DNA of 64,000 bases, taken from an uncultured Candidatus Saccharibacteria bacterium. GTDB taxonomy: Bacteria; Patescibacteriota; Dojkabacteria; GCA-002793355. The notes beneath the pieces were generated by a model that was not told the origin of the DNA, did not search any database, and saw only the letters and a list, made by a program, of their open reading frames with translations. Every line of letters starts with the position of its first letter. Within the stretch, counting starts at the first letter, position 1. The DNA is taken from the NCBI GenBank assembly GCA_964525295.1, contig CAZGEO010000001.1, positions 9,671-73,670 on the forward strand. Direction: 5' to 3'. Shown piece after piece: positions 13,469 through 30,872 of this stretch. The translations under genes and the position numbers were made by a program.

Positions 13469-14956
13469 ATGCAAGAACAATATCTCTATCTTGGTGACAC
13501 AGAAGTTTTTAATGGTCATTATTTGCTCGCCGTTTTCAAATTAGTTCCCTATGGCGACATCACAATCGAAGATGCTGCCTCAGAAGTTGCCGCTGAATCA
13601 TCAACAGGTTCCAATCTAAAAGTCGGCACACGTACCAATTACTCAATGGGTATCGATGCACGAGTCTACAAAATTGATAAAGAAAATCAACTTGCATACA
13701 TCGCGTACCCTTGGTCTATGTTTGATAGGGGAGGAAATGTACAAAATATTTTGACTTTCATTGCCGGTAACGTATTCGGCATGTCAGAATTGAAAGAATG
13801 TAAACTTCTTGATGTTTGGTTTCCATCGCAAATGCTCGATCAATACGACGGCCCAAGCGTAACACTCGATGATATGCGAGAATATCTAAACAATTATGAT
13901 CGTCCTGTATTAGGAACCATTATTAAACCAAAAATTGGCTTAACTTCAACAGAATATGCTGAAGTATGTTACGATTTCTGGGTAGGAGGTGGCGACTTTG
14001 TTAAAAATGACGAACCACAAGCTGACCAAGTTTTCTCTCCTTTTGAAAAAATGGTTGATTCCGTTCGAGAAGCAATGGATAGGGCCGAAGAAGTAACCGG
14101 CCACACGAAAATACACTCGTTTAATGTTTCGGCTGCTGATTTTGACACTATGCTTAAACGAGGTGATTACATTTCATCTGTTATGAAACCTGGAAGTTAC
14201 GCATTCCTTGTTGACGGCATTACCGCTGGCTGGAGTGCTGTACAAACAATTAGACGCCATTTTCCTCATGTATTCTTACATTACCACCGAGCTGGACACG
14301 GAGCATTTACTCGAGCCGAAAATCCAATTGGATACTCGGTACTTGTTCTCTCAAAGTTCGCGCGCTTAGCTGGCGCTTCAGGAATTCATACTGGTACAGC
14401 AGGTATCGGTAAAATGGCAGGAGACGCAAAAGATGACATTACGGCAGCGCACGCAATATTGAAGCTCAAGTCAAAAGGTCATTACTTTGATCAGGTTTGG
14501 TCTGAAATTCCAGAAAACGATTTTGATATTGTTGCTGCAATTGAAAAAGAAGCAGCATTATGGGGTAAAGGTGCCCATGGTATCGCTATGTCACGATTAC
14601 GCGGTCTAGATATGACTATGCAGCGAAAAATGTCTTGGAGAACAATAAATAAAACCGCACCAATTATTTCTGGTGGGTTGAATCCTGTACTTTTGCCAGA
14701 GTTCCTTGATACTATCGGTACAATCGACTTCATAACGACTATGGGTGGTGGTGTACACTCACATCCAAGTGGAACAAAAGCTGGAGCTACCGCTGTCTGC
14801 CAAGCATATGATGCCTGGAAACAGGAAGTAAAACTTGAAGAATATGCAAAAGAACATAAGGAACTTGATGAAGCAATCAAATTCTTCAATAAGCACGGTA
14901 CACAGGCCCACAGAGTAGACAATTCAGAAGTCTATAAGGTTGACAAGCCTGCATAA
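13469..14956 (+). CDS. rbcL: Ribulose-1,5-bisphosphate carboxylase/oxygenase large-subunit homologue (form II/III or III-like)
   Basis: Motifs KPKIGLT, GGGDFVKNDE (Lys/Asp/Glu active site), HYHRAGHGA and SGGLN...GGGVHSHP match the RuBisCO catalytic signature. No small-subunit gene is present. Confidence 0.8.
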   Translation: MQEQYLYLGDTEVFNGHYLLAVFKLVPYGDITIEDAASEVAAESSTGSNLKVGTRTNYSMGIDARVYKIDKENQLAYIAYPWSMFDRGGNVQNILTFIAGNVFGMSELKECKLLDVWFPSQMLDQYDGPSVTLDDMREYLNNYDRPVLGTIIKPKIGLTSTEYAEVCYDFWVGGGDFVKNDEPQADQVFSPFEKMVDSVREAMDRAEEVTGHTKIHSFNVSAADFDTMLKRGDYISSVMKPGSYAFLVDGITAGWSAVQTIRRHFPHVFLHYHRAGHGAFTRAENPIGYSVLVLSKFARLAGASGIHTGTAGIGKMAGDAKDDITAAHAILKLKSKGHYFDQVWSEIPENDFDIVAAIEKEAALWGKGAHGIAMSRLRGLDMTMQRKMSWRTINKTAPIISGGLNPVLLPEFLDTIGTIDFITTMGGGVHSHPSGTKAGATAVCQAYDAWKQEVKLEEYAKEHKELDEAIKFFNKHGTQAHRVDNSEVYKVDKPA

Positions 14957-15046: not shown

Positions 15047-16225
15047 ATGCAGCCATTAGCATTTAGAATGCGTCCTACAAAGCTGGAAGATTTTGTTGGT
15101 CAAGCAAACATTGTCGGTGAAACTGGGCCATTACGATCAATGATTGAAGCTAATTCAATCCCAAGTATGATTTTTTGGGGGCCTCCAGGAACTGGCAAAA
15201 CAACACTTGCAGAAATAATTGCTACAACTGTTGATGCAGAATTCTATAGACTTTCAGCAGTAACTGACGGCAAGGAGGCTCTTAAAAAAGTCGTACAAAT
15301 TGCAGAAAAGAATGAACAGTATCACAAAAAAACTATTCTCTTTATTGATGAGATTCACCGCTGGAATAAAGCACAACAAGACGCACTACTTCCATACGTT
15401 GAATCTGGCAGCATTACGCTAATCGGAGCGACAACTGAGAATCCAAGTTTTACGGTTATCTCTCCACTTTTATCGCGTTCACGAGTATTTATTTTTTCGT
15501 CTCATTCAGTCGAAGACATTGCAAATCGATTACAAAAAGCAGCAAAAGAATTAGAGATTGAACTTTCTAACGATTTAGCAATTTACATCGCCAATCTTGC
15601 AAATGGTGATATGCGATTTGCAATCAATTCTCTCGAATTAGCAGTTGAATTATCCCAAAAGAAACCCTTAACAAAGGAAATTGTCGAAGCTGCAATGCAA
15701 AAATTCCTTAGGTACGATAAATCAGGTGAAGAACATTACAATATTATCTCTGCAGTTCACAAAAGTTTGAGAAGTAGTAACGCTTCTGCTGCTGTTTATT
15801 GGATTGTTCGTATGCTTGAAGCAGGCGAAGACCCCTTGTATATAGCTCGACGATTAGTTCGCTTTGCCAGCGAAGATATTGGCAATTCACAACCAAATGC
15901 TTTGCTGCTTGCCAATCTAGTATTTGATACATGCAAAAATCTTGGTATGCCAGAGTGTGGCGTAGCCCTTGTGCAACTTGCAGAGTATTTAGCAAAAGCA
16001 CCAAAAAATAATTCTGCATATGTGGCCTATACCGAAGCAGTTAAAGACGTGCAGAAATTAGGCAACTTACCAGTACCACTCCACATTAGAAATGCTCCAA
16101 CGAAATTAATGAAAGACGTTGGCTATGGCAAAGGGTATCAATATGATCACGATTTACCAGGCAAGAAATCAAATCAAGAATGTTTTCCAGACGAACTTAA
16201 AGGTCGAAATTACTTCAATGAGTAA
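15047..16225 (+). CDS. rarA: Replication-associated recombination protein A (AAA+ ATPase RarA/MgsA)
   Basis: Walker A WGPPGTGKTT, Walker B IDEIHRWNK, and a conserved RarA C-terminal domain. Confidence 0.9.
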   Translation: MQPLAFRMRPTKLEDFVGQANIVGETGPLRSMIEANSIPSMIFWGPPGTGKTTLAEIIATTVDAEFYRLSAVTDGKEALKKVVQIAEKNEQYHKKTILFIDEIHRWNKAQQDALLPYVESGSITLIGATTENPSFTVISPLLSRSRVFIFSSHSVEDIANRLQKAAKELEIELSNDLAIYIANLANGDMRFAINSLELAVELSQKKPLTKEIVEAAMQKFLRYDKSGEEHYNIISAVHKSLRSSNASAAVYWIVRMLEAGEDPLYIARRLVRFASEDIGNSQPNALLLANLVFDTCKNLGMPECGVALVQLAEYLAKAPKNNSAYVAYTEAVKDVQKLGNLPVPLHIRNAPTKLMKDVGYGKGYQYDHDLPGKKSNQECFPDELKGRNYFNE

Positions 16226-16231
16226 TTGGCG

Positions 16232-17128
16232 TTATTGCACTTCAGTTGGTGTAGCAGATGGTATCTGCGAATTTTTCAAGAAAAAATCGATTATATCGGC
16301 TGTATACTCAGTATCAATTTGAAAGTGAGTCTTACCATCAAGCGTTACCAATTCAATTGGTAATTCTTTCTTCGTGAAGTATGTTAGCAACTCTTTGCCA
16401 ACCCAATACGGAACATTTTTATCTGCCGTGCCATGCCACACTTTAAGTGGCACGTTGCGATATTTTTCAAAATCGTCTGCCTTGTATAACTCAACCTGAG
16501 TGGCTGGGGCAAGAAGCGCGATCTTCTTTATAGTTGTGTGATGTAATAAGACATGTTTCATCGCTGGCATTCCTCCCATACTAAAGCCTAAAATCACAAT
16601 CTTTTCCTCTATTGGATATTGCGTCTTTACCCAATCAATTAAGGCAATCGAATCTTGTACTGCAGCAACACTACCATAATTATCACCATGCTGATTTGAT
16701 GCCAGAAACACGAAATTCTTTTTTGTAAATTCTGAAGCCATGTAGCGAACATTTTTCATGACTTCATCAGAAAAATTGGTTGTGATGCGCTGCGAAGAGC
16801 CGTGATAGTACATCACAATAGTTGGTGGTAAAGCAGGATCAATAATACTCGGATACGCAACATATCCTTGCTGGCCACCGATTGACGGAGTCTTTTCGAA
16901 GAAACCCGAGAAACCTTCTGGAGCTGTTTCAGAATAAACAATTGGCGTTGGAGTAGGTACCGGAGTTGCGGTGGTGGCGACTGGGGTGGGGGTGGGGTTT
17001 GTTTGCACCATTTCTGGAGGAGATGATTTCTTGAAAATTACAATAAACACCGTAATGGCGACAATCATCACAATAATTCCAAAGAGAGCAAATGTTTTTC
17101 GCTTTTTCACCGCATTAAATCTATTCAT
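16232..17128 (-). CDS. Membrane-anchored alpha/beta-hydrolase (esterase/peptidase-like)
   Basis: N-terminal TM, a Pro/Thr-rich linker TPTPVATTATPVPTPTP, and the GFSMGG nucleophile elbow. The ORF-track start is at 17227. The internal start MNRF (17128) is preferred because it avoids overlap with the next gene. Confidence 0.65.
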   Translation of the reverse strand: MNRFNAVKKRKTFALFGIIVMIVAITVFIVIFKKSSPPEMVQTNPTPTPVATTATPVPTPTPIVYSETAPEGFSGFFEKTPSIGGQQGYVAYPSIIDPALPPTIVMYYHGSSQRITTNFSDEVMKNVRYMASEFTKKNFVFLASNQHGDNYGSVAAVQDSIALIDWVKTQYPIEEKIVILGFSMGGMPAMKHVLLHHTTIKKIALLAPATQVELYKADDFEKYRNVPLKVWHGTADKNVPYWVGKELLTYFTKKELPIELVTLDGKTHFQIDTEYTADIIDFFLKNSQIPSATPTEVQ

Positions 17129-17163
17129 TTCGCTCATTATAGCAAAAGTGCTAAAATGAAATA

Positions 17164-17916
17164 ATGAAGTTGATTGATATATTTTTGCAAAGGTATAAAA
17201 ATACCAGAATTTCCATAAATATCTCAATCAAAACAGCTACAAAAGTTGCTGAAAACAATAGTTATTCACTAATTCTGCAAGATATTATCAAAACAGATAA
17301 TATACCAACAGCTATACAGCTAACCAATGGCGAAAATATGGCTGCAGAATCAACCATGACGATGAAATTACCTCAAGATGCACTCATAACTGAAGCGCCT
17401 CAAGGTTTAGTGATTTCATACGAAACAGCGGAGCGCAAGATATCCATTACCTTAACTGGCACGCCAATAGCAAATACAAAAACAGAGCAGCCACATCCAG
17501 TGCACCAGAAAGATGCAGCAAATGACCTCCCAAAGATCCGTGAAGTAAAAGATTCTCATGATCAGATCAGTAAAATCACAATTCAGACTCCAGCAACTTA
17601 CCAAGACCAGTCCTTTTTCGAACAGTTGAAACAACTTATTGAATCGTTTTTGCGCGACTGGCGAACGCTTTCACTTGCCAAAAAACGTACTGGAACGGCG
17701 ACTTGGCTTCACAAGAATGTTCGATTTGATCAAATAGCAACAGTATTCATTCCAGGAGATACTTTCTTTCAAATTTCAGCCTTCGAAGGAAAGGAATTAA
17801 TTACTATTGATATTCCCACCTCAATGACAATCTCCGTGCAAAATAAGAATATTTTGTTCGATTTTGACGATATCTCGTATGAATTAGTACAAGGCGACAA
17901 GCCTACAATGCGATGA
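17164..17916 (+). CDS. Hypothetical protein
   Basis: 250-aa ORF whose stop overlaps the start of the downstream EEP gene (ATGA). Confidence 0.4.
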   Translation: MKLIDIFLQRYKNTRISINISIKTATKVAENNSYSLILQDIIKTDNIPTAIQLTNGENMAAESTMTMKLPQDALITEAPQGLVISYETAERKISITLTGTPIANTKTEQPHPVHQKDAANDLPKIREVKDSHDQISKITIQTPATYQDQSFFEQLKQLIESFLRDWRTLSLAKKRTGTATWLHKNVRFDQIATVFIPGDTFFQISAFEGKELITIDIPTSMTISVQNKNILFDFDDISYELVQGDKPTMR

Positions 17917-18965
17917 GTGTTACTTCCTTCAAAGAGTCTCGTTTTGGAGTTATGATCGAACCTATCATTTCAATCTTTCTGGTATTGTGCACAGTAGCAT
18001 ACTTTACCTTCCCCGAAAAATGGGGCGTCTTCTACTTCTTCATTAATACTCCGCCTCTTTTTGTTTTTGCACCAATTGCGATTTTCGCTGCATACGCTTT
18101 CCTCTTCAAACGTAAAATTGCGAAAATCGCACTACTCAATGCGGTCATTTTTGTCATTCTTTCAATTGCTGCGGTGAGACCGCACCTTTTAGGACCTCAA
18201 CTGTTATCGCAAGATATAAAAAGAGAACAACCTATTCAATATCGCATCTGCTCGTGGAATACCGCCTATTTCTTTGAATTCAATAGAACTGAATCTTTTA
18301 ACTACCTTGCACAAAAGAATTGTGACATCATACTATTACAAGAAGTATGGCGAAGCGATTTACTAACTATTGAGTTAGAACAATACAAGACAAGTCATTT
18401 TCCTGAACATGAACTGATTGCGAACGAAGAATTCGTCATTATTTATCCCAAAACACTAAAATTACTCAAACAATATGAATCTGAGTACAAAGGCCATTTT
18501 GCCGTAGGTTTGTCATTGCCTGGAGAAAAATCAGTTATTATTATCAATGCTCACATTTGGAATCCTATTGTTCCAAGACCGTTTTATACAGAAATTGATA
18601 CGGTAGCTTATCTTGATGGACGAAAAACACGTGAACTTGAACAAACTGAATTAATCAACTTCGTTAATTCGCGAATATCAGAAAATCAACGTATAGTATT
18701 AATGGGTGATTTCAACACAACACAAAATAATGAATTCTTTGCAAAGTTAACTGCTCCCGGCACGAGATTACAGCATACTTCGCCTCTAATTGCGATTGCA
18801 GAGCCTATTTGGTCAAAACAATCTACGTATCCAGCTTCATCGCCATTTCTCCGACTCGATTATGCATTCGTCAGCAAACCACAAGCGAATAGAGCAGAGC
18901 TTAAAAAAGAATGTCGCCCAGAGTTTGCCGATCACTGCTTGATGATTTTAGAAGTTCTGTTATAA
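17913..18965 (+). CDS. Membrane-anchored endonuclease/exonuclease/phosphatase (EEP) family protein
   Basis: Three or four N-terminal TM helices followed by an EEP domain (ILLQEVW, INAHIW, MGDFNT). Confidence 0.7.
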   Translation: MSVTSFKESRFGVMIEPIISIFLVLCTVAYFTFPEKWGVFYFFINTPPLFVFAPIAIFAAYAFLFKRKIAKIALLNAVIFVILSIAAVRPHLLGPQLLSQDIKREQPIQYRICSWNTAYFFEFNRTESFNYLAQKNCDIILLQEVWRSDLLTIELEQYKTSHFPEHELIANEEFVIIYPKTLKLLKQYESEYKGHFAVGLSLPGEKSVIIINAHIWNPIVPRPFYTEIDTVAYLDGRKTRELEQTELINFVNSRISENQRIVLMGDFNTTQNNEFFAKLTAPGTRLQHTSPLIAIAEPIWSKQSTYPASSPFLRLDYAFVSKPQANRAELKKECRPEFADHCLMILEVLL

Positions 18966-18974
18966 TTCATCTAC

Positions 18975-19047
18975 GGGCAGTTAGCTCAGCTGGTAGAGCA
19001 CGTCATTGACATTGACGTGGTCATAGGTTCGAGTCCTATACTGCCCA
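18975..19047 (+). tRNA. tRNA-Val (anticodon GAC)
   Basis: Cloverleaf by hand: acceptor GGGCAGT/ACTGCCC, D-arm GCTCAGCTGGTAGAGC, anticodon stem CGTCA/TGACG with loop TTGACAT, T-arm ATAGGTTCGAGTCCTAT, discriminator A. CCA is not encoded. Confidence 0.9.
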
Positions 19048-19048
19048 T

Positions 19049-19095
19049 GGGTGTTTGGCAATCTCGCAGAGGTTGGCAGACACCCATTTTGTTAC
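19049..19095 (+). terminator. Hairpin plus U-tract after tRNA-Val
   Basis: GGGTGT...ACACCC stem followed by ATTTTGTT. Confidence 0.4.
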
Positions 19096-19128
19096 ATAGG
19101 CGATGAACCCAATATTACGAAGTAAGAT

Positions 19129-19182
19129 TGAAGGTTCGAGTCCTATTCCGAGTTTACGAGGAATATGGAATATACTGCCCCT
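19129..19182 (+). repeat. Interrupted duplicate of the tRNA-Val 3' end (pseudo-att remnant)
   Basis: aggttcgagtcctat matches the tRNA T-arm exactly (15/15). After a ~25-bp insertion comes atatactgccc, repeating the acceptor 3' strand. A third copy tatactgccca lies at 19282-19292. Confidence 0.7.
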
Positions 19183-19446
19183 ATTTTTATAACGAAGTGG
19201 CAACAGTACTTTTGAATACACTTATAATGTCGAGAACCTATGCTGCGAAGCAGTAATAGGTAAGAGGCCTAAAGCATAGCTTTACAAAGTATACTGCCCA
19301 TTCAATATCAGTCTCATAGCTTCCCTGAATTATGACATCAATACCCTAAACCAATAACTTTTAGTACTTCAGCACATTAATAATTTATCGCTCTACTGCT
19401 TTAATGCTTTATTTTTCCCGAGTTCCTGTAGTTGATTTCAATACTA

Positions 19447-19475
19447 TTGACATTGACACTGTCATAATTTATAAT
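19447..19475 (+). promoter_or_regulatory. Predicted sigma70 promoter for the small secreted protein gene and glycan cluster
   Basis: TTGACA, 17-nt spacer, TATAAT, about 28 nt upstream of the ATG at 19504. Confidence 0.5.
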
Positions 19476-19503
19476 ACGAGTAAATTAGCTATAGAAAATA
19501 ACT

Positions 19504-19767
19504 ATGAAAACTCTAACAAAATTAGCAGTTGCAGTAATGAGCGTATTCTCATTTGCAAACATCAAATCAGTTGCAGCACAAACTGACACTGGTTCAGTAT
19601 CAGGAGTTGTTACGACATTAAACGTAACACCATCAGCAACAATCACCGCAACTGGTGAAGTTCTTGGTGCAACTCAAAACGCAGGGCTCTTAAGCTACTG
19701 GTGGGTTATCTTACTGATCGTTGTTGTATTGGGTGTTGTTCTCTTCTTCGCAACTAAGAAGAGCTAA
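19504..19767 (+). CDS. Small Ser/Thr-rich secreted protein with C-terminal TM anchor
   Basis: Signal peptide MKTLTKLAVAVMSVFSFA, a Thr/Ser-rich middle region, and a C-terminal hydrophobic helix followed by KKS. Confidence 0.6.
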   Translation: MKTLTKLAVAVMSVFSFANIKSVAAQTDTGSVSGVVTTLNVTPSATITATGEVLGATQNAGLLSYWWVILLIVVVLGVVLFFATKKS

Positions 19768-19807
19768 TCAGTACTTGAACGAATCTATAGCACTTAAGAA
19801 GAAAGTC

Positions 19808-21157
19808 ATGGTTGTATCCTTAGGGATACTGACTATGGCTTTCTTTTTTTTATTACGCAGTCATTTTCTTACACCGTGGAAACTTTATTCAGATTCCTAC
19901 AAGTTTTTGCTAATCGCTGAGTCTTTTGGCAAAATTCGCTCTCCTCTTGAAATGTTTCCTCAAGTTAATTGGCCTTTTGAAACGTTATTATGGCCATATA
20001 AATGGTTATACCCAATCATAATTGCAATTTTTCACAAATTCTCCTCACTTATTTCGCTCGCGACAACAACAGAGAGTCTTGCTCACTCGGTAAATCTAAT
20101 TTCATCAAGCGTAATTCCGCTACTCATTGGGGCAATAATTCACAAAAAGACCAGAAACTCACTTCTTACAATCATCTCAATTCTATTGATTGGAATTTCT
20201 GGCTCACAATTAATTTGGAGTGGCTTTATTGTAACTGAGCCTTTAGCATTAAGTCTAATACTTGCGTATTTCCTATCAGAGAAAACTGGCTTCAAATTTT
20301 TATTTGCAGTTCTTATGTTTCTTGCGCGACCCGAATTAATAATCATTCCGATTATCACAATTCTATTGAGTAAAATTACAAAAACTCAAGTTGCCAAGTA
20401 TGCAGCGATAACCCAATTACTCACAGTAGGAATAATTACACTATTATTCGCAATGACCACCTACTTTACAACCTATTGGCAATTAGATTTACTCATTTTT
20501 GCTGCTGTCATCACAGCACTTGCATTCATCATATTCAACAAAATTAAGACTATTGATCTCGAATTAACCACTACTTTTATAACACTTTCGATTATCTACC
20601 TTCTCTTCAATCCAAACATCGAACGATATGGCGTTATTCTCATTCCACTAATGCTTATTGCGATATTTGCATCGTTTGAAAAGTTTGAATTAACAAAACA
20701 ATTAAACTCACTTTCAACGAAGATTGCAATTTCAGTAGCGATAGTAGTTCTAGCAAGTATTCAATTCTCCGCAGTGATTAATTACCCCATTCGAACAAGC
20801 CAAGACTATCATAGTGAGATTGCCGAGAAAGCATTGCGTTATGCGATTCAAAATGATTACACAAAGATTGTCACTTATCAGGTTGATCCGCTACTTTACA
20901 CGGCTTACAAGTACAATTCGCCTGTTTCCGTTTATGCAATTGAAAAGTTAGCCGATATAGATGAAGTTTATAGCGAAAAATGGTATAATACGCTATTTCT
21001 AATTGATGAATCAGCTGAATACTATGATACAAAACTAGATTTCACCAGATTGAAACTAGAAACATCCTTTTATTCACAAGAACCCTTCAAAACTAACAAC
21101 GAAACTATACCCAACGCAAAAGTAGAATTATGGCGAACAAAATTGGATTTGGAATAA
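19808..21157 (+). CDS. Polytopic membrane glycosyltransferase, GT-C fold (GT39/ArnT/PMT-like), putative
   Basis: About 11 predicted TM helices in the N-terminal two-thirds and a soluble C-terminal domain, matching the architecture of GT39/GT83 proteins. The start was moved to the ATG at 19808. Confidence 0.5.
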   Translation: MVVSLGILTMAFFFLLRSHFLTPWKLYSDSYKFLLIAESFGKIRSPLEMFPQVNWPFETLLWPYKWLYPIIIAIFHKFSSLISLATTTESLAHSVNLISSSVIPLLIGAIIHKKTRNSLLTIISILLIGISGSQLIWSGFIVTEPLALSLILAYFLSEKTGFKFLFAVLMFLARPELIIIPIITILLSKITKTQVAKYAAITQLLTVGIITLLFAMTTYFTTYWQLDLLIFAAVITALAFIIFNKIKTIDLELTTTFITLSIIYLLFNPNIERYGVILIPLMLIAIFASFEKFELTKQLNSLSTKIAISVAIVVLASIQFSAVINYPIRTSQDYHSEIAEKALRYAIQNDYTKIVTYQVDPLLYTAYKYNSPVSVYAIEKLADIDEVYSEKWYNTLFLIDESAEYYDTKLDFTRLKLETSFYSQEPFKTNNETIPNAKVELWRTKLDLE

Positions 21158-22731
21158 CAATACTGGCGATAATTGCATTGTCTGTTTTTTACTTAGTTAC
21201 TCGTACCAATACAGTTGCAACAATCAGCCCAATATCAGCTGAATTAGCAAAACAATTATTTGTAGAAAGTGATAAAGCGGTTAAATCTCTCAAGTTGCCA
21301 GCATTAATTTCCAACGGAATGGTTCTCCAGCGAGAGACGCCAATTTTACTTTGGGGTACTGCTGTTCCTAACTCTCTCATCGAAGTTACCATCCAAAATC
21401 GTACGGTAAAAACTCTGTCAAATAATGACGGCTTATGGGCAGTCAATTTACCAAAATTAAAAACTTCAGCCAGCGAAACACTCTCGATAAATGCAGCAAA
21501 TGAAACAAGAATTTTTACAAATATCGCAATTGGTGACGTTTGGCTTTGTAGCGGACAAAGTAACATGGCATGGCCAATTTCAAAAACAACCGATGATGCA
21601 ATAGATGAATTGCAATCAATTGAAATTGCAAACTTAAGATTCTTCTCAGTCAAGAAAATTTATGATTTGAATACCTATTCTTCATTCGCAAGTGAAGAAA
21701 GACCAATAGGCAATTGGTTTACGGCTGAATCGAAAAAAGAATTTGAAAATTTTTCTGCCGTATGCGGACTTTCAGCAAAAGAAATTTACGAAAAAACGCA
21801 AATACCTCAAGGTTTTATTTTGAGCGCACATGCAACAACATACATTGAAGCATGGTTAAATCTCACACAACTTGACGAATTCCCAGAATATCGCCCAATA
21901 ATATCTACTATGTATACTGACGCTAATATTGAAAACTCGTACTCATACATTAAAGCTTGTGATAAAAGGCTTATACCTGCGAGCCATTATAATACTATGA
22001 TCTTTCCAATAATAAATTTTACCTACAAAGGAATCATTTGGTATCAGGGAGAAAATAATATCAAGCATACAGAGAATTACGCAGGCTTATTAACTTCTCT
22101 GCTAGGACATTGGAAAATAAACCCCGCAAAAGGTGCTAATGTACGAGATATTTATGTAATTGAACTTGTTAGTTTTGATGAACCAGGTGACAAACATTCA
22201 TGGGCTGCAATTAGACAATCACAATCGATTGCGGTATCGAACCAAACACGAACATTCCTTATACCTGCAAGTGATCTTGGGGATCCAGAAAATGTTCATC
22301 CTGTAGATAAGATGCCCCTTGTATCTAGACTAAATACTAGAATTTTGGCAAATTCATACGGCCTTGCAACAGATATTGTTGCACCAAAAGTACATACAAT
22401 CACAATTCGTGAAAATAGTATTGAATTAATTGTTAACATCACGAACGATACCTTAGAAGAAGACAAAACCTCAGAGATTTCAGGTTTTGAACTTGCTTCA
22501 ACAGACGGCCAATATTTTTCAGCGCGTGCAGTATTATCGAAGGGAAACATCATTTCAGTTACTTCAGATAAGGTGCCAAGTCCACGATATATTCGCTACC
22601 GATGGAGTAATGTGCCACAAAACGGCATATTCATCACAAAAAGTTCTAGACTGCCAATTCTAGGATTTTCAAATAATCCAGCTGATTTTAGTAATAAATC
22701 ATCGCTAAATTCACTTACTTCATGCAATTAG
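21130..22731 (+). CDS. Sialate O-acetylesterase-like carbohydrate esterase (DUF303/SIAE family)
   Basis: Signal anchor plus the CSGQSNMAWP motif (GQSN block) typical of 9-O-acetylesterases. Confidence 0.65.
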   Translation: MANKIGFGITILAIIALSVFYLVTRTNTVATISPISAELAKQLFVESDKAVKSLKLPALISNGMVLQRETPILLWGTAVPNSLIEVTIQNRTVKTLSNNDGLWAVNLPKLKTSASETLSINAANETRIFTNIAIGDVWLCSGQSNMAWPISKTTDDAIDELQSIEIANLRFFSVKKIYDLNTYSSFASEERPIGNWFTAESKKEFENFSAVCGLSAKEIYEKTQIPQGFILSAHATTYIEAWLNLTQLDEFPEYRPIISTMYTDANIENSYSYIKACDKRLIPASHYNTMIFPIINFTYKGIIWYQGENNIKHTENYAGLLTSLLGHWKINPAKGANVRDIYVIELVSFDEPGDKHSWAAIRQSQSIAVSNQTRTFLIPASDLGDPENVHPVDKMPLVSRLNTRILANSYGLATDIVAPKVHTITIRENSIELIVNITNDTLEEDKTSEISGFELASTDGQYFSARAVLSKGNIISVTSDKVPSPRYIRYRWSNVPQNGIFITKSSRLPILGFSNNPADFSNKSSLNSLTSCN

Positions 22732-22734
22732 CAT

Positions 22735-23727
22735 ATGGAGAGCAAACAGCAAAAATATCTTCCTGTACTTGATTGGCTCCGTGCGATCGCAATATCTCTG
22801 GTTCCATTGACGCACGCTAGCTACAATGAATTATTTAACGTCAATAAAATTGTTGCCTACGCAGACGTTTTTGCACACTTAAGCGTGCCAATCTTTGTAT
22901 TTATTTCTGGGTTTCTTTCTCTTGGTGCAACACCACAGAAAATTAAAGAACGTCTACCAAGAATTTTATTACCATATCTTCTCATGAGTATCTTTTGTCA
23001 GGTAGTCAAATTTAGAGATGATTTAATTGGTAATTTCTGGACGATTATTTACAATATTCTTACTGCAGATTCATTCGGTATTTACTATTTCGTTTTTGTA
23101 ATTGTCTATTTGTATTTATTTGCTATCATTCTTTCAAAATATCAAAAACATTTGGGCAAATTTTTACTAATAACATTATTCATAAGTATTCCTTTCTTCA
23201 TTTATAGTGCGATTCCTTCACAAAATCTTTATCAAATTTCAAGAGAATTGTATTATCGCTTCCCACTTAATTGGCTTATCTTCTTTATCGCAGGCATGTG
23301 GTTCAAGGCAAATGATATATTCTTGAAACTACAGCAATTCAAAATACATTTTGCACTAGCTTTTCTTGCTTCACTCACATTGCTCGTAATTGCTGGGGAA
23401 CTCGGTTTCTGGGTCGTTTACGGCTCAATTTTCTGGTTCATTTTTAGTTCATTAGGCATCGTTGCAATATACTTACTTTTTGAAAATGTAAAAGTATATC
23501 CGATTATTAAATATCTTTCGGAAACATCTTATTCTATTTACCTGTTACATATCATTCCATTGGCATTTTTGTATTATTTCATTTCAATACCAGATTCAGC
23601 GATTGTCGCATACTCATTACCAATAACTTTAGTACTCGCAGTAGCAGTTACCATATTCTCAATAATTGGCAGGGAAGTTACGAAATATATCTTTAAGGAT
23701 AAATCACCATATATCATCGGCAGTTAA
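22735..23727 (+). CDS. Acyltransferase family 3 membrane O-acyltransferase
   Basis: Ten-TM protein with the N-terminal LDWLRAIAI motif typical of acyltransferase_3. Confidence 0.7.
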   Translation: MESKQQKYLPVLDWLRAIAISLVPLTHASYNELFNVNKIVAYADVFAHLSVPIFVFISGFLSLGATPQKIKERLPRILLPYLLMSIFCQVVKFRDDLIGNFWTIIYNILTADSFGIYYFVFVIVYLYLFAIILSKYQKHLGKFLLITLFISIPFFIYSAIPSQNLYQISRELYYRFPLNWLIFFIAGMWFKANDIFLKLQQFKIHFALAFLASLTLLVIAGELGFWVVYGSIFWFIFSSLGIVAIYLLFENVKVYPIIKYLSETSYSIYLLHIIPLAFLYYFISIPDSAIVAYSLPITLVLAVAVTIFSIIGREVTKYIFKDKSPYIIGS

Positions 23728-23728
23728 T

Positions 23729-24826
23729 ATGAAAAAAATACTTTTTCTCAACTCAGAATTTCCGCCAATTGGAGGAGGTGCAAGCCCTGTCAGTTATGAA
23801 ATTGCACTAAAACTTTCTGAAAATGGTTATGACATCGATGTAGTTACGGCTGGTTATAAAAAGCTACCAAAATTCGAAGAAATCAATGAGCATTTAAGAA
23901 TTCATCGGGTGAAATGTCTGCGCTCCAAAAAAGAGATTTCTACACCAATTGAGCAACTTAGCTATCTAGTCAGTGCATTTTTCAAAGCTTTTTCGTTACA
24001 TAAAAAGAAGCAATTTGATTTTAGCTATGCACATTTCATTATTCCAACAGGAGCATTAGCGCTAGCGCTAAAGTTGATCACCGGACTCAAATATTTGATT
24101 TCTGCTCACGGTAGCGACGTTATTGGACATAACTCAAGATTCAAAGTTCTGTACAAGGTACTTGTTGCACCATGGAAATTGATTTTGAATAACGCTGAAA
24201 AAATTACCGTTCCTTCACAACATTTATTTGAAAAACTAACTACAACACATTCCCACTTGAGCGCTGACAAAGTAATCATTCTACCGAACATTGTAAAAAG
24301 TGACATATATAAACCAATGAATAAAGAAAAATATATTCTTACCGTTTCTAGAATCAATCCACAAAAAGGTATCCAAGACTTATTAACGGCCTTTGCGAAC
24401 ACGAAAAATTTCGATTGGAAAATAAAAATAGTAGGCGAGGGACCATATAAAGAGAATTTACAAAAAATTGCAGTCGATCTTGATATATCAAAGCAAGTTG
24501 AATTTGTTGGTTGGGCTAGCACACTAGAGAAGAAACAAGATTTATATGGTCATGCAGCAATTTATGTTAATCCAAGTTACGCAGAAAGTTTCGGTATTAC
24601 CACAATCGAAGCAATGCAAGCAGGTTGCCATTGCATCATTTCAGAAACTGGTATCGCAAAACAACTACAGAATGTTAAAACATTTCGACCTGGTGATATA
24701 AAAACACTGCAAGAACATCTAAACGAAGCATTTACAAGTGATAAACTAACCTTGTCGAGTGATCACGAACTCTTTACAGAAGAAAAAGTTGTACCTTTAC
24801 TGCTTAACATATTACAATCAATGTAA
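23729..24826 (+). CDS. Glycosyltransferase family 4 (GT-B, retaining)
   Basis: N-terminal FPPIGGGAS, and the C-terminal EGFGLPVLEAM-like motif ESFGITTIEAMQAGCHCI. Confidence 0.8.
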   Translation: MKKILFLNSEFPPIGGGASPVSYEIALKLSENGYDIDVVTAGYKKLPKFEEINEHLRIHRVKCLRSKKEISTPIEQLSYLVSAFFKAFSLHKKKQFDFSYAHFIIPTGALALALKLITGLKYLISAHGSDVIGHNSRFKVLYKVLVAPWKLILNNAEKITVPSQHLFEKLTTTHSHLSADKVIILPNIVKSDIYKPMNKEKYILTVSRINPQKGIQDLLTAFANTKNFDWKIKIVGEGPYKENLQKIAVDLDISKQVEFVGWASTLEKKQDLYGHAAIYVNPSYAESFGITTIEAMQAGCHCIISETGIAKQLQNVKTFRPGDIKTLQEHLNEAFTSDKLTLSSDHELFTEEKVVPLLLNILQSM

Positions 24827-25845
24827 TGAATCAAAATTCACAGAAATTTCCAATTACACTCATTAGTGTCGTAGTTGTTGCGATTCTCGCTGCAGTCATA
24901 TACTACGTGAACTTTCTTCCATTCGGACTAAACACTCATAATGAGCTAATTTTTGGTAAAGAAAATGACACGTTAGGAGTATTCAAATTATTACCTTCAA
25001 GCGCATGGGGAAGCAGAGATGTAGAACAATCGGGCACTACCTACAGAACGATAGAAGGGTCGGCTCAAATAACGTACCAACCAAAATATGTTCTTACCAA
25101 AAGTAAAATTTCGTTAACTATTGAAGGAGATGATGTTGCTGCCTATACCGATACTGTTCCTTTTAATCCCGAACTTTTCAATAAATGGCAGCACAATTGG
25201 GACCTTAGCACTAGAATTCCAACGGAATTTAAAGGTAATACCTATTTATTTGATGGTTGTACATATTTCGATGGTAAATCAATAATGTATTACGAGAATA
25301 CAAAAGATTTATTTGAAAGTGGAACTTTTTCTCTCTACGTTGAATGGCAACCAAATGAAGTGCTAGATTATCAGCAAATAGTAGGGCATTTCAACTGGGA
25401 ACTGTTTCAATCAAAGAACTTCGTAATTTTCCAGGTCGGCAAGATGGCTGGAACAACCTCAACGACTTTCTACTCAATTCGAGCTCCAATTGATCAAACC
25501 TTCTTCAATAAAAAGCATAAAATTCTCATCCAATATAAACCTGATTCAACCAATGGCTACATCGAGATGTTCCTTGATGACAAATTTGTAGAAAGAAGAA
25601 ATATCGGTTCTGCAAGAATCGACCCACAATATGGTGACAATAACCTAACATTTGGCTGGTCTTCACACAATTATCAGCAAAATCCACGGTTTAAAGGGTG
25701 TTTGTATAGAGTAGCTTACTCACAAGATTTGGCAATTACGCCGACAAAAGAATTGTCCTATACCTCAAATACCCCAGAAGCCTTATTCAATATTGTTGGA
25801 AAAGGAAAAATCTACAAAGCTAGTATTACCGTAGAAAAGCAATGA
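24826..25845 (+). CDS. Membrane-anchored concanavalin/LamG-like domain protein
   Basis: N-terminal TM followed by a beta-rich domain with a jelly-roll-like pattern (FSLYVEW, IVGH, FQVGK, YIEMFLDDK). Confidence 0.45.
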   Translation: MNQNSQKFPITLISVVVVAILAAVIYYVNFLPFGLNTHNELIFGKENDTLGVFKLLPSSAWGSRDVEQSGTTYRTIEGSAQITYQPKYVLTKSKISLTIEGDDVAAYTDTVPFNPELFNKWQHNWDLSTRIPTEFKGNTYLFDGCTYFDGKSIMYYENTKDLFESGTFSLYVEWQPNEVLDYQQIVGHFNWELFQSKNFVIFQVGKMAGTTSTTFYSIRAPIDQTFFNKKHKILIQYKPDSTNGYIEMFLDDKFVERRNIGSARIDPQYGDNNLTFGWSSHNYQQNPRFKGCLYRVAYSQDLAITPTKELSYTSNTPEALFNIVGKGKIYKASITVEKQ

Positions 25846-27716
25846 ATCGAAAAGATCTTATTTTTGCCCTAGGTTTTGTTTGTGTAGTACTACTTACCCT
25901 CATAGGGGGTGATATTTGGGGACTTTTTAGAATTCGCATGCTTATCGACATTCCGACACTAATCATCGTTACTTTTTTAACCTTTGTGTTGCTTATTAAC
26001 CTTGTCGCAACTCGATTTCTCTTCCCTTTACAAGATACATTACAGAAAATTTTTATTTATTCTACAGTATTCTTTGCGCTAGGAACTTCAATCATTGCAA
26101 TACTTTTCGGGCATTCATTACTTACCTGGTTTGGCATAGCAGTCGTATTTCTTGTAAGTTCGTTACTCATAAACGATTTCGCCCATCGTGCGGATATCGA
26201 AACCGAATCATTTGAAATACCAAAAAATTTCTTTTTACCAATTTATGCAATTATTGGAATTCTATTTCTAGCGACGAGACTGTACATACTTATAACTTAT
26301 CAAGGCTCATACCTAGACGAGTATTTACACATATTCACAGGTGTTTCTTGGGTGAATCAAGCTTTCGGTGAAATCTACAAAGGAATTGAGTATTACCGCG
26401 GAATATACTTAACCGCATTAAGTGCAGTATCATTTCTCATTTTCGATTTCTCATTTTACGCACAAAAGGGTATTCCATTGCTCTTTAGCATCATCAATTT
26501 CATACTTTTTATTTCGTTCTCGAAGAAATATATCACAAATAAATGGATGCACATTTTGTCTATTTGTGCATACGCTATCACCCCAATTTTGATATTTAAT
26601 GCAACATATATGAGAACTTATATCTTTTTTGAAACGTTCGCATATATTTCGTTTTTCTTGGTAAACAGAACAATTCGTTATTATGAAGAGAAGAATTGGC
26701 AAATGCTTTCAGCATTTGCCGTATCAACAGTTATTTTCATTGCATTCATCTTCTTTACTAGAGATGTAGAATCTATGTTATTCCTCTTAATAATTGCTTT
26801 TGGCGGATTATTCTACATCTTATTTACTGCAGCGACACAAATAAAGTTCGATTTTCTTGCAAAATTACCTCTTAAGCATTGGCATATTCTGGCAATAATC
26901 CTACTTGCTTTACCATTTTTAAATGTAACAAAATATCTCGATTTATTCTTAAATGGACAATTAACTCACGGGGATGGTGGCGTACAAAAATTCCTACAAT
27001 TCTTTTTTGTAGACAATCTTTTAATTACCGTTTACTTCTTAGTCTTGTGGATTGTGACACTCTTCGAAAAGAACATTGAGAGAAAGATCTTCTTTGCTGT
27101 TATCGCATCATTATTTATCTTTCACAACATAATCACACCTGATTATCGAACATTACGTGGTATTTTTTACTTCTTTCCCTTCTTTATTATTGGTGCATTT
27201 ACAGTTATTGAGAAACTCTATTCTTCACGATTTATTCTTATGGTTTGCATAGGTATAGTTCTTGCAGTCTCCCCATTATTCTCAGCTAGGCAATACTTTA
27301 TTAATGGCCCTGGTATACCAAAAGAAATTGATTACTATCCATTCAAAAAATATTACGAAACCGTAAAATTTGAATGCAAAGATCGAAAAATTCTCTCAAT
27401 GATGCATTCAAACTATATTTCGAATTTTCATGGTGTTAAACCATATGCCATAATTTATCTTCGCCAAGAACAACTAGCAATTGACGAACGGTATTATAAA
27501 GGTGATACCGGCAATTATTTTCAGTCAGTTGATAATGTTCCTGTATTAAGTAGCTATATTGATGTCGAAAATCTGCTCAAAAATGAAAAAGTTTGTCTTC
27601 TGCTAACTACAGATTTTCGCCATACAGGGCTCTACATTACGGGGAATGACTATTCAGCACTATTTGGCAATTTAACAACGACTCCCGTTCAATCACTGAG
27701 AATCCTCAAAAATTAG
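25842..27716 (+). CDS. Polytopic membrane glycosyltransferase, GT-C fold (GT39/ArnT-like)
   Basis: At least 12 TM helices, and an acidic DE motif in an early loop (YLDEYLHIF) typical of the PMT/ArnT GT-C families. Confidence 0.55.
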   Translation: MNRKDLIFALGFVCVVLLTLIGGDIWGLFRIRMLIDIPTLIIVTFLTFVLLINLVATRFLFPLQDTLQKIFIYSTVFFALGTSIIAILFGHSLLTWFGIAVVFLVSSLLINDFAHRADIETESFEIPKNFFLPIYAIIGILFLATRLYILITYQGSYLDEYLHIFTGVSWVNQAFGEIYKGIEYYRGIYLTALSAVSFLIFDFSFYAQKGIPLLFSIINFILFISFSKKYITNKWMHILSICAYAITPILIFNATYMRTYIFFETFAYISFFLVNRTIRYYEEKNWQMLSAFAVSTVIFIAFIFFTRDVESMLFLLIIAFGGLFYILFTAATQIKFDFLAKLPLKHWHILAIILLALPFLNVTKYLDLFLNGQLTHGDGGVQKFLQFFFVDNLLITVYFLVLWIVTLFEKNIERKIFFAVIASLFIFHNIITPDYRTLRGIFYFFPFFIIGAFTVIEKLYSSRFILMVCIGIVLAVSPLFSARQYFINGPGIPKEIDYYPFKKYYETVKFECKDRKILSMMHSNYISNFHGVKPYAIIYLRQEQLAIDERYYKGDTGNYFQSVDNVPVLSSYIDVENLLKNEKVCLLLTTDFRHTGLYITGNDYSALFGNLTTTPVQSLRILKN

Positions 27717-27718
27717 AA

Positions 27719-28951
27719 TTATTTTGAGGCGCGTAATAACAAATACACCCAAATTCTAACACTTAGTGCCATGATTAATTGCAGGACTACTACTGCAACA
27801 AAAATTGCAGAAACTCCGCCATATGCGTAAGCAAGAGGAAGCGCAAACAAACTGATTAACCCTAGTGGAACATAAGAATAACTTAAAATTTTTGCATACC
27901 CGGCTGGCACAATAATGCCTGTATCGACCAAATTCGTCCAAATATATATTGCCAATTGCGCAAGCATTGAATAAACTACTGTTTTATTAGCCAATAATTC
28001 ATTATACTGTGGAAAAACTACGGGTAGTACAAGAATTAAACCATAAAAAAGCCCAACGCAGATAATTGCAACCGGTAACAACCATATAGAAAATTTCCCT
28101 AATTCATTCCTCAAAAAAGATTTATTTTTTACAATCTCTTCTTTTGCGTATCTAGGTGCTAAAATTTGGCCAACGATTGAAAAAGGAAACGCAAATAAAA
28201 GCATCACTCTCGATAGTAACTCGAAGGTTGCGAGCTCATTAGTCGCACCAACATTTCCCAAAACAATTAAGACATATCTTGAAAACAAGAAATAACTAAT
28301 GGCAGCAATACCAAATTGAACTGAGAACTTAAGCAACGGCTTCACATATTTGAGCGTTACAGCAAAGTTTGGTCGAATTTTTCCTAAGTAAAATAATCCA
28401 ACTGTCATAAATACCCAGTAGAAGGTTTGAGCGAGTAATCCTCCTAAAATTCCATATTGTTTCAAAAGAAAATAGGTGACAAAAATTGCGATAAGCGAAC
28501 TAACTACAGTTACGACTGCGCTTTCATTATATTTCTCAAGACCCCTTAAAACACCCTCAAAAAGTGTTGCAATGACCGAAAAAGCAACCATTACGAGTAA
28601 AGCCACTAAATGTAATGGATTGACTATACTTAGCAACCCCAAAAACAGTAATATACTAATAACAAGAACGCCAAGAATTACACTAACCAGAGCAATAATC
28701 AAGCCAGCACCGGTAATTCTTTCGGTATTCTCTTTCGTTGGATTATTCGCAACAAATCTTGTTGCTGCTGTTGAGATACCAAAATCAGCCAACATATACG
28801 CAATAGAATATACCGCCAACAGATAACTAAACTGAGCATATTCTGGAATTGGTAAAATGAGTGCTGCAATAAAACTAGTAAGCAATATTACCGCCTGTTT
28901 GAATCCTACCGTAATAAATCTCAATACAAAACTTTTTTTTAATGAATGCAT
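27719..28951 (-). CDS. Oligosaccharide flippase (Wzx/MOP superfamily polysaccharide biosynthesis protein)
   Basis: 410-aa protein with 12 TM helices, and a Wzx-type N-terminal region. Confidence 0.7.
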   Translation of the reverse strand: MHSLKKSFVLRFITVGFKQAVILLTSFIAALILPIPEYAQFSYLLAVYSIAYMLADFGISTAATRFVANNPTKENTERITGAGLIIALVSVILGVLVISILLFLGLLSIVNPLHLVALLVMVAFSVIATLFEGVLRGLEKYNESAVVTVVSSLIAIFVTYFLLKQYGILGGLLAQTFYWVFMTVGLFYLGKIRPNFAVTLKYVKPLLKFSVQFGIAAISYFLFSRYVLIVLGNVGATNELATFELLSRVMLLFAFPFSIVGQILAPRYAKEEIVKNKSFLRNELGKFSIWLLPVAIICVGLFYGLILVLPVVFPQYNELLANKTVVYSMLAQLAIYIWTNLVDTGIIVPAGYAKILSYSYVPLGLISLFALPLAYAYGGVSAIFVAVVVLQLIMALSVRIWVYLLLRASK

Positions 28952-29916
28952 TAAAATGGCTCTTTTATATAAAGAAACGATGCATCTTTTTTCTTATTCA
29001 TCGATTGAATAATCTTACGTTGTTTCAGCATGTGTGGCAAATTTTTCAAGAAGATTCCAATCGATTTAAAATATGCGACAATAATACCGAAATTTCTTTT
29101 TTTAACAGCAACGCTCAGGTAAATAAAAGGGTAGACTAATGCAGCAAAAAAGATACGGAACAATTCTTTCAATGGAAAATTTTTTACCATGACTGTTAGA
29201 ATTCCCGATAAATAGTAGGTAAACTTCCAAGAAAAGTATTTCTTATCATCATGATTCCCCATACCAATATGCTCGAGCAATTCGGCATTATATAAATAAA
29301 CTTTATATCCTGCAGCGTATGCTCTTGCAGAAACATCTGTATCATCTAGCATGAAAGGTTGAATTGTGTCGTAACCACCAAGTTTCTCCCAAATCTCTTT
29401 TTTAAAGAATACACCTCCACCATGATACGACGGTACTACAATTGGCCCCGAATGCGTAGTCATTTTTTCAAGCTTTACTGCATTCTTATGAATTTTTGTT
29501 CCATACAATGAATAATAGATACCGTAATACTTTGTTTTCTTTGCTCCAGCATCGTATAAACCGACGCCCAATAATGCTGCATCCTCTAACTTGAGAAAGG
29601 CTTCAAATAAGTTGGTGATGTAACTTCTAGATTCTGGCAAAATATCATTATCTAGTAATAATACGTACTCACCACTAGCTAATGAAACCGCTGTATTTTT
29701 ATTTACCCCATACCCATGACGTTCGTCACCTAAGCGTTTATATCGAATTTGAGGGAAATTCTTTTTAATATATTCCTCTGTACCATCATGCGAAAAATCA
29801 TCAGAAACTACAATTTCGAGGTTTGGATAATCTTGCTGTAACCAGACTGGCAATGTTTTTTCTAACATTGCACGCTCATTTACTGAGGTGAAGGCAATGG
29901 TAATTTTTGGGTTCAT
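28951..29916 (-). CDS. Glycosyltransferase family 2
   Basis: N-terminal Rossmann-like GT-A fold with the DxD-type motif VSDDFSHDGTEE. The start overlaps the upstream gene. Confidence 0.75.
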   Translation of the reverse strand: MNPKITIAFTSVNERAMLEKTLPVWLQQDYPNLEIVVSDDFSHDGTEEYIKKNFPQIRYKRLGDERHGYGVNKNTAVSLASGEYVLLLDNDILPESRSYITNLFEAFLKLEDAALLGVGLYDAGAKKTKYYGIYYSLYGTKIHKNAVKLEKMTTHSGPIVVPSYHGGGVFFKKEIWEKLGGYDTIQPFMLDDTDVSARAYAAGYKVYLYNAELLEHIGMGNHDDKKYFSWKFTYYLSGILTVMVKNFPLKELFRIFFAALVYPFIYLSVAVKKRNFGIIVAYFKSIGIFLKNLPHMLKQRKIIQSMNKKKDASFLYIKEPF

Positions 29917-30872
29917 TTACTTGATTCTCTAATCAGATAGCTCTTTTTATCACCGCTTTCGTAATAGGCACGAAGCATAATTTCTCCTAGAAAACCGAAA
30001 AAGAGGAATTGCATACCAATAAAGAAAGTCATGATACTTATAATGAAAAATGGGTTACCGGTAATGTCTGACATTCCCAAAATTTTCATTAAAATTGTTG
30101 CTACAAAAGAGAGGCCTGAAAGCCCCAAAGAAGCTAAAGTTAATGGAGCAATCATCTGTGTAGGAGTAGTTTTTCGCATCATCAACATTTTAAGATTGAC
30201 GATATCAACAATTACCTTAAACATTCTTCCGAGCCCATATTTTGATTCACCATATTTTCTTGGTGCATACTTCACAACAAGCTCACCAATGTTTGCACCC
30301 AAATCATGGGCGATGTATGCAATAAATCTATGTAACTCACCATATAATTTGATGTTTTTGAACAATCTTGCGGTAGCAAGCTTTACGGAACATCCAGCAT
30401 CGTGCAAATGATGTGCCCTAAATGCTTTTCTAATAACCCAGTTCGCAATGAGTGATGGCATTCGTCGAGATTTTGATTCTTGCCAACGTTCTTTTCGCCA
30501 TCCAACCATCATGTCGTATTTACCGGTCTTTACAATCTCATACATTTTTACGAGATCTTCTGGAAAGTTTTGCAAGTCTCCATCTAATGTTGCAATATAA
30601 TTGCCAGTAGCTAGGTCTAAACCTGCTGCGAGAGCAGTACTTCGACCACTAGTTCTCATGAGAGAGATAAATTTTTGCGCTGGATTTTTCGCATTGACTT
30701 CTCGCAAAACCTGTCTTGAATTATCTTTTGAATTATCATCAACCCAAATAACTTCGTACGGAATACCTGCGAATGCAGTATCAATTAAACTCGCTAATTC
30801 GGGAATACTTTCACTTTCGTTCAAAACGGGGATCACTATCGACACTTCAACTTTGCTAATAGTTTTTTTCAT
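29913..30872 (-). CDS. Polyprenol-phosphate glycosyltransferase (GT2, GtrB/ArnC/Dpm1-like)
   Basis: VSIVIPVLNE, WVDDNSKDNS and ATLDGDLQN motifs plus two C-terminal TM helices, which is the GtrB architecture. Confidence 0.8.
   Translation of the reverse strand: MKKTISKVEVSIVIPVLNESESIPELASLIDTAFAGIPYEVIWVDDNSKDNSRQVLREVNAKNPAQKFISLMRTSGRSTALAAGLDLATGNYIATLDGDLQNFPEDLVKMYEIVKTGKYDMMVGWRKERWQESKSRRMPSLIANWVIRKAFRAHHLHDAGCSVKLATARLFKNIKLYGELHRFIAYIAHDLGANIGELVVKYAPRKYGESKYGLGRMFKVIVDIVNLKMLMMRKTTPTQMIAPLTLASLGLSGLSFVATILMKILGMSDITGNPFFIISIMTFFIGMQFLFFGFLGEIMLRAYYESGDKKSYLIRESSK

Follow-up and report, generated by a model that had tools for sequence, protein, structure and literature searches.

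The 64,000-nucleotide (nt) stretch of Dojkabacteria DNA analyzed here (contig CAZGEO010000001.1, referred to below as the window) contains a tRNA-Val(GAC) gene followed by a strain-variable cassette of 12,555 nt (19049-31603), which carries a glycan gene cluster and is replaced in a second haplotype of the same species. Rather than a mere pile-up of integration scars, the locus is a hot spot of recombination linked to a tRNA gene. In our estimate there is about an even chance (roughly 0.5) that it represents a tRNA-anchored, replaceable surface cassette, and that the tRNA-derived repeat units at its left edge are attR-type relics of recombination at the tRNA site. Hot spots at tRNA and tmRNA genes with tandem islands are known; the present locus stands out mainly for the swapping of surface genes at the strain level in a bacterium of the candidate phyla radiation (CPR) and for the conserved units. 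A first-pass annotation of the window had interpreted the partial copies of the tRNA 3' end as scars of serial insertions, and the downstream cluster as possible horizontally acquired cargo; both claims are reassessed below.

The sister strain (haplotype B) is represented by two contigs from one sample, SRR32934939, overlapping in the tRNA. The left one (L087) is 98.9% identical to window positions 15340-19048 (3.7 kb). The right one (L095) encodes BipA and the product of a 267-amino acid (aa) open reading frame (ORF), identical to their window counterparts at 627 of 629 and 267 of 267 residues, respectively. The left breakpoint (19048|19049) is exactly at the tRNA 3' end; past the right breakpoint (31603|31604) the next 163 nt are identical, followed by ~99% identity. 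Between the breakpoints, haplotype B contains another terminator hairpin, one repeat unit, its own promoter, a gene encoding a 1552-aa surface protein (Beta_helix/HYR), and an allele of the guanylate-kinase-like (gmk-like) gene, whose product shares 74% aa identity with that of the window. As segment 19049-31603 is replaced between ~99%-identical flanks, the glycan cluster is strain-specific cargo.

Orthologous loci were recovered by a metagenome scan for the 3' half of the tRNA and by look-ups of flanking proteins. The 73-nt tRNA-Val(GAC) sequence is identical in L089, L090, L091, and L093. The frame formed by a gene of the endonuclease/exonuclease/phosphatase (EEP) family, tRNA-Val, the gmk-like gene, and the BipA gene was found in five genomes with different contents: the glycan cluster in the window, and genes for proteins of 1552 aa in L095, 2526 aa in L089, 503 aa in L093, and 1388 aa in L102. 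In L089, the order is EEP gene, tRNA, two units, the gene for the 2526-aa surface protein and, in opposite orientation, the gmk-like gene; in L093, the tRNA is followed by a truncated unit, the 503-aa ORF, and the gmk-like gene. The synteny comparison proposed in the first-pass annotation thus revealed replacement of the cluster in a strain of the same species, and a conserved frame; the glycan cluster itself was seen only in the window, so that giant-protein content is the common state.

Five Logan contigs (five samples, three species) reach into the tRNA from the upstream side, and every one of them stops at the tRNA 3' end, which fits sequence heterogeneity starting from that base. The 99 nt at positions 19049-19147 are unassembled in Logan contigs of the window's own strain, which are otherwise 100% identical to the window; the contigs compared at this gap were L081, L082, L083, L084, and L087. 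Left contigs of this strain end at 19048 (three samples), and right ones begin at 19148 (two samples).

The tRNA gene (18975-19047, + strand), identified by ARAGORN and Rfam (tRNA, 71.3 bits), does not encode the CCA end and forms the left anchor of the variable segment. The two further partial copies of its 3' end, pointed out in the first-pass annotation, are real. The T-arm piece AGGTTCGAGTCCTAT (tRNA nt 51-65, 19025-19039) has a second copy, matching at 15/15 positions, at 19132-19146; with at most two mismatches allowed, there are 2 copies per 64 kb against 0.05 expected, a count reached in no shuffle. The core sequence TATACTGCCC (19037-19046) recurs at 19171-19180 and 19290-19299, that is, in 3 copies per 64 kb against 0.05 expected (0/100 shuffles reach 3). 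The last of these copies extends to TATACTGCCCAT (19290-19301, 12/12); its existence had been noticed correctly, but its coordinates, given as 19282-19292, were wrong by 8 nt. In the second copy, the T-arm and acceptor pieces are separated by 24 nt (19147-19170), in agreement with the interruption of ~25 bp described earlier, and this insertion corresponds to hairpin B (see below). The core-to-core spacing is 134 and 119 nt. Chance origin of the repeats is excluded by the shuffle controls. Core and box motifs do not occur elsewhere in the window, except for an inverted 9-mer at 31606, and no tRNA fragments were found beside tRNA-Gly and tRNA-Trp; hence, the repeats are neither a dispersed family nor a trait of all tRNA loci.

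The tRNA fragments are parts of two repeat units of 80-95 nt that share a common plan: the box (ATAAT)GTCGAGAACC or GGCGAGAACC, a long hairpin A closing on GAACC/GGTT, a T-arm remnant, a short hairpin B, (C)AAAG, and TATACTGCCC. Unit 1 (type I; 19094-19182, + strand) consists of the box GGCGATGAACC, hairpin A (GAACC at 19105-19109 paired with GGTTC at 19133-19137), the T-arm copy (19132-19146), hairpin B (TATTCC at 19144-19149 paired with GGAATA at 19160-19165), and the core copy TATACTGCCCCT (19171-19182). Unit 2 (type II; ~19210-19303, + strand) has the box ATAATGTCGAGAACC, hairpin A (19236-19261), a T-arm decayed to AGGTAAGAGGCCTA (19258-19271), hairpin B (TAAAGC with GCTTTA, 19270-19284), CAAAG, and the core.

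Behind the identical tRNA, three related genomes or haplotypes carry one or two homologous units: two in L089, one (truncated) in L093, and one in L095, which together with the window makes a family of six. Type I is represented by both copies of L089 and by the truncated copy of L093. The more distant but syntenic L102, whose tRNA-Val ends in GTGCTGCCCA, has no units. The copies follow the trailer of their own tRNA: in L089, where the tRNA gene encodes CCA, the units carry CCCACCA, and in L095 the repeat runs on into the flank (TATACTGCCCrTTCTCAAA). The tRNA-derived part of the units begins sharply at nt 51; local alignment of tRNA nt 1-50 with the upstream part of every module gave scores no better than those of shuffles (p 0.39-0.98). 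Copying of only the 3' part of the tRNA is expected of att-site duplication, and not of duplication of the whole gene.

A recombinase-bearing element was found at the same site in a lineage related to L089. Contigs L091 and L090, from two metagenomes, share 93-96% identity with L089 on the upstream side of the tRNA and, straight after the tRNA-CCA, diverge from it into GC-richer DNA. This DNA codes for a DDE_Tnp_4 transposase and for a possibly frameshifted Resolvase+Recombinase protein (PF00239 + PF07508 in L091) of the large serine recombinase type. The recombinase appears split (L091 83-2367, - strand): a 266-aa ORF with the Resolvase and Recombinase domains is followed by a 151-aa ORF and then by the transposase gene, and this may reflect either a decaying element or an assembly frameshift.

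From these observations we infer that a recombinase made the units and that the invariant tRNA serves as the crossover site for cassette replacement. The fixed left anchor of the locus would be tRNA-Val(GAC), and the right anchor the 5' end of the gmk-like gene. Each cassette would supply its own terminator hairpin for the tRNA and carry, besides one or two units and a strong promoter, the cargo, which is the 11-kb glycan cluster in the window and a single giant surface protein in the sister strain and other species. The units may be regarded as copies of the terminal 23 nt of the tRNA (nt 51-73) that have been displaced and are split by hairpin B at the junction of the T-stem and the acceptor stem, with the conserved box and the long hairpin ahead of the tRNA part probably representing an element-derived arm joined to the duplicated tRNA 3' end. 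The formation of the units would be due to site-specific recombination within the T-arm/acceptor region, probably driven by elements that resemble the serine-recombinase element of L091; the relics would have been duplicated later, travelling with the cassettes. If the attR origin is true, a unit or a TATACTGCCCA repeat is expected at the distal end of an L091-type element.

Two properties of tRNA-borne islands were found at the locus, namely, an intact tRNA gene at the border and polymorphic content with the breakpoint at the tRNA 3' end. A third one, the distal repeat of the tRNA 3' end, was seen only for the mini-modules of 108-123 nt, not for the glycan cluster. All direct copies sit between the tRNA and the cluster, leaving the cargo outside them, and no further direct copy was found beyond the cluster in the 64 kb. 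The earlier proposal of acquired cargo therefore stands insofar as the cluster is strain-specific and bounded by the tRNA on the left, but neither the distal att copy nor the integrase, which it had proposed to seek beyond the window, was found in the parts of the window searched.

Several observations weigh against the attR-type origin of the units. First, no integrase, resolvase or transposase was detected among the 40 ORFs (18-52054) scanned with Pfam, ORFs beyond 52.3 kb not being covered; neither did the L091 recombinase and transposase, used as tblastn queries, match anywhere in the window. Second, the L091 element is known from its tRNA-proximal end, and that such an element leaves a unit behind is a deduction. 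Third, IMG/VR yielded no element with an attP: there were 0 matches to the unit pattern, and the L091 recombinase had no viral relatives there. Fourth, all modules are very short (96-135 nt) and lack ORFs, and such uniformity is hardly expected if kb-sized elements had left remnants by random deletion. Fifth, hairpin B separates the T-arm and acceptor pieces in 6/6 units; this shared insertion indicates one ancestral unit and not repeated independent integrations. Finally, the conservation of the units above that of neighboring DNA and the pair-preserving changes in their stems seem to point to selection or recent spread. With hairpin B common to all units and their conservation exceeding that of the surroundings, the initial reading of serial insertion scars does not hold.

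The sole IMG/VR match of the tRNA 3' 23-mer was an unrelated phage tRNA array, rejected as an attP candidate: L086 (IMGVR_UViG_3300034406_000036) carries an array of 18 viral tRNAs, in which the last 25 nt of a tRNA-Val(TAC) (6312-6387) coincide with those of the window tRNA, and no attP.

A possible, although clearly less probable, alternative is that the units are functional and selected, either as structured RNAs derived from the tRNA trailer or as folded or duplex DNA sites for cassette exchange; they would mimic the T-arm and the 3' side of the acceptor of tRNA-Val, their origin by recombination being secondary. The type II units of haplotypes A (window) and B (L095) are ~88% identical, compared with ~70% nt identity of the adjacent gmk-like gene and a spacer that is otherwise unalignable; as the units are conserved well above the surrounding DNA, they are not freely decaying scars. 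Ten differences distinguish these two units, four in loops, three in linkers, and three in stems; none of the ten breaks a stem, and one stem difference is a double compensatory change (C-G to T-A). The stem of hairpin B is paired in both of its variants (TATTCC/GGAATA in the window and L093; TATTTT/AAAATA in L089), and hairpin A differs wholly in sequence between units, its closing GAACC/GGTT remaining constant. Moreover, unit I is recognizable across species whose EEP proteins are just ~30% identical, and the uniformly small size of the modules also favors function. On six units, this evidence from sequence comparison is suggestive, not conclusive. RNAalifold applied to a MAFFT alignment of the units yielded no consensus structure, so the statements on structure rest on single-sequence folds and manual comparison, and the folding z-scores of single sequences are modest (+0.3 to -2.3). 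A known RNA family is excluded, as the Rfam search (E<=10) matched the tRNA alone. Besides, the units lie behind the terminator-like hairpin and ahead of the cassette promoter, so that their transcription is not evident; and they are truncated in L093 and absent from L102.

It is unlikely that the modules arose by tandem duplication of the complete tRNA-Val gene with its spacer through unequal crossing-over, followed by decay. Such an origin would account for the spacing of 134 and 119 nt, which equals the 73-nt tRNA plus a spacer of 46-61 nt, for the head-to-tail arrangement of the copies directly 3' of the tRNA, and for the MAFFT alignment, which sets the GTCGAGAACC box against the D-arm GGTAGAGCAC of the tRNA. 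It is contradicted by the lack of any match of tRNA nt 1-50 above shuffles and by the sharp start at nt 51, and it leaves the hairpin at the T-stem/acceptor junction unexplained.

The right breakpoint is abutted by an inverted core copy, TGGGGCAGTAT (31604-31614, - strand), the inverse of ATACTGCCC(C); the 9-mer ATACTGCCC has its sole other copy in the 64 kb in this inverted position (31606-31614). One could imagine that the units and this inverted core at the start of the gmk-like gene are working sites of cassette exchange, driven by a recombinase that recognizes mimics of the tRNA-Val T-arm/acceptor end at either side of the segment, and that the hairpin-bearing units owe their conservation to this role, but we consider this rather improbable. 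The inverted core (ATACTGCCCC) occupies codons 2-5 of the gmk-like gene, and, as all relatives read CT(T)GCCCC in the same N-terminal coding motif, its presence may be a coincidence. An invertible segment between the inverted cores was also considered and rejected, since L083 and L095 run unbroken through 31604 and give no sign of inversion.

Least likely of all, ordinary homologous recombination between conserved flanks, with the tRNA repeats as bystanders, would suit the conserved flanks (EEP and tRNA; gmk-like and BipA) with non-homologous contents in five genomes, the unremarkable composition of the cluster, and the failure to find a recombinase in the window, but it explains neither the position of the left breakpoint at the last tRNA base in every comparison, nor the tRNA-3' repeats, nor the insertion with a recombinase gene found at that base in L091 and L090. 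As a means of spreading an already existing cassette, homologous recombination is compatible with the preferred reading of a tRNA-anchored cassette with relic units.

The ssrA islands of Dehalococcoides are the closest precedent for this locus. In these tandem islands, 20-bp repeats derived from the ssrA 3' end mark the boundaries, every repeat is preceded by a conserved non-ssrA motif, and the integrases are serine recombinases that act in the T-loop (PMC3146451). Both systems have an intact small-RNA gene at the left edge with tandem direct repeats of its 3' end downstream, a crossover region in the T-arm, and strain-specific downstream content; hairpin B and (C)AAAG precede the core copies in the window, L089, L093, and L095 much as the non-ssrA motif precedes the ssrA repeats, and a serine recombinase is present at the site, here in the relative L091 and judging by domain content. 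Unlike in Dehalococcoides, the repeats are separated by ~100-125 nt and not by kb-sized islands with a recombinase module; the cargo lies past the last repeat, no integration module was found here, and the repeats are split by a conserved hairpin.

Other known systems resemble the locus in part. In E. coli, the tyrT gene is followed by 178-bp repeats (the rtT region), each containing the last 19 nt of tRNA-Tyr, for which unequal crossing-over has been proposed. There, too, a tRNA gene precedes head-to-tail units that hold its 3'-terminal segment. Unlike at tyrT, the units of the window and its relatives are shorter, number one or two, and show no trace of the 5' part of the tRNA; moreover, the locus is the boundary of a strain-variable cassette, and an RNA product is known for none of the units. 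Capsule and O-antigen replacement loci likewise have conserved flanks around alternative, non-homologous sets of surface genes, with a sharp drop of identity (here from 99-100% to ~70% or unalignable), but here the left flank is a tRNA gene with the breakpoint at its last base, and the alternatives differ in kind, a glycan pathway versus a single giant protein. A scheme of sublocations for integration within tRNA genes was reportedly set out by Williams in 2002. As with integrators that use the T-loop at tRNA genes, the duplicated segment extends from the T-arm to the 3' end (nt 51-73); in contrast to islands of tyrosine integrases, no tyrosine integrase, distal repeat bounding the cargo, or compositional signature was found in the searches described.

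The genomes of CPR bacteria (Patescibacteria) like Dojkabacteria measure ~0.66 Mb, and these organisms presumably live attached to host cells. Given such a lifestyle, surface decoration likely decides which hosts are used and which phages infect. At this locus, ~2% of the genome beside one tRNA gene is swapped between otherwise ~99%-identical strains. If the reading of cassette exchange is true, whole surface cassettes, glycan-type or with a giant adhesin-like protein, are swapped between episymbiotic CPR strains. The interval from tRNA-Val to the gmk-like gene offers a locus addressable by polymerase chain reaction for strain typing and for the study of surface variation in uncultured CPR bacteria, and the conserved units, as mimics of the tRNA 3' end, are compact and clearly delimited, whether they represent a recombination site, an RNA or a relic.

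The glycan cluster (19835-30872, mixed strands), whose glycan-type character was recognized in the first-pass annotation, is borne out by Pfam-type annotation. It comprises genes for a 440-aa membrane protein, a SASA esterase, an acyltransferase_3 protein, a GT4 glycosyltransferase, two proteins of unknown function (339 and 624 aa), a Polysacc_synt flippase, and two GT2 glycosyltransferases; the flippase and GT2 genes are on the - strand. The suggested deviation in base composition and codon usage is absent: GC content is 0.358 vs 0.375 +/- 0.030, GC content at third codon positions is 0.296 vs 0.300, and the Kullback-Leibler divergence of codon usage is within the range of other genes; thus, the composition test gave no signal of foreign origin. 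The SASA protein has one full-length relative, with 41% identity, among 5.8 billion proteins. This relative (P0033) and a homologue of the gmk-like protein (P0031, 54% identity) are each encoded on a 31,637-bp Logan contig, and the same contig size suggests that a similar cassette may exist elsewhere, possibly in the same slot of another species. The gmk-like gene itself (30925-31620, - strand) lies within the divergent segment, except for its first 17 nt.

The cassette has its own promoter with a perfect consensus, TTGACA-17-TATAAT (19447-19475, + strand), as proposed initially. It holds a fourth tRNA-like piece (19446-19466), missed in the first-pass annotation, which matches nt 31-51 of the tRNA (the anticodon arm) at 18/21 positions; its local alignment score of 15 exceeds those of all 2000 shuffles (mean 7.7, maximum 14), and the UUGACA of the anticodon loop corresponds to the perfect -35 hexamer. 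The homologous promoters of L089, L093, and L095 have no tRNA likeness. The first ORF behind the promoter (19504-19767, + strand) encodes an 87-aa protein that has a signal peptide and, at its C-terminus, a WW-TM-KK anchor. It was considered as a collapsed remnant of a giant protein, and this was rejected, as its anchor matches the C-terminal anchor of the giant protein of L089 weakly (E 0.001) and L095 not at all. The next ORF (19721-21157) overlaps it in another frame if begun at TTG 19721, while gene callers place the start at 19835 (440 aa).

The tRNA is preceded by a promoter-like site, TTGATG-16-TATAAT with an upstream TG (18939-18966, + strand), located within the 3' end of the EEP gene; its motif GTGTTATAATTCA is kept in L089, L091, L093, L092, and L102. 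A terminator-like hairpin (19047-19093, + strand) with 19-nt arms followed by TTTTGTT begins at the last base of the tRNA; the hairpin abutting the tRNA end is different and unrelated in each haplotype or species.

Upstream of tRNA-Val are, in order, the genes for a RuBisCO homologue, RarA, an alpha/beta hydrolase, a 250-aa protein, and the EEP protein; downstream, the 87-aa ORF and the glycan cluster are followed by the gmk-like gene (- strand), the 267-aa ORF, and the BipA gene. RarA is 78% identical to that of a metagenome-assembled genome of Candidatus Dojkabacteria (WS6, CPR). Synteny based on RarA was uninformative for the tRNA locus: contigs with a 60% identical RarA (L002, L003) have no tRNA downstream of it, and the contig with the 78% identical one (L001) ends short of the tRNA position. 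The homologue of the RuBisCO large subunit (13469-14956, 495 aa) is kept in synteny with RarA in every Dojkabacteria-like relative retrieved (L081, L088, L092, and L102). Gene calls include a small ORF with a match to the 23S_rRNA_IVP family (PF05635) at ~32638-32840 (L083 13491-13584), just 3' of the 267-aa ORF. Finally, within an ORF with no Pfam match (34866-35906, - strand), positions 35041-35240 are 85-87% identical between strains amid ~99% identity, and this patch may be a second small hypervariable or recombined tract.

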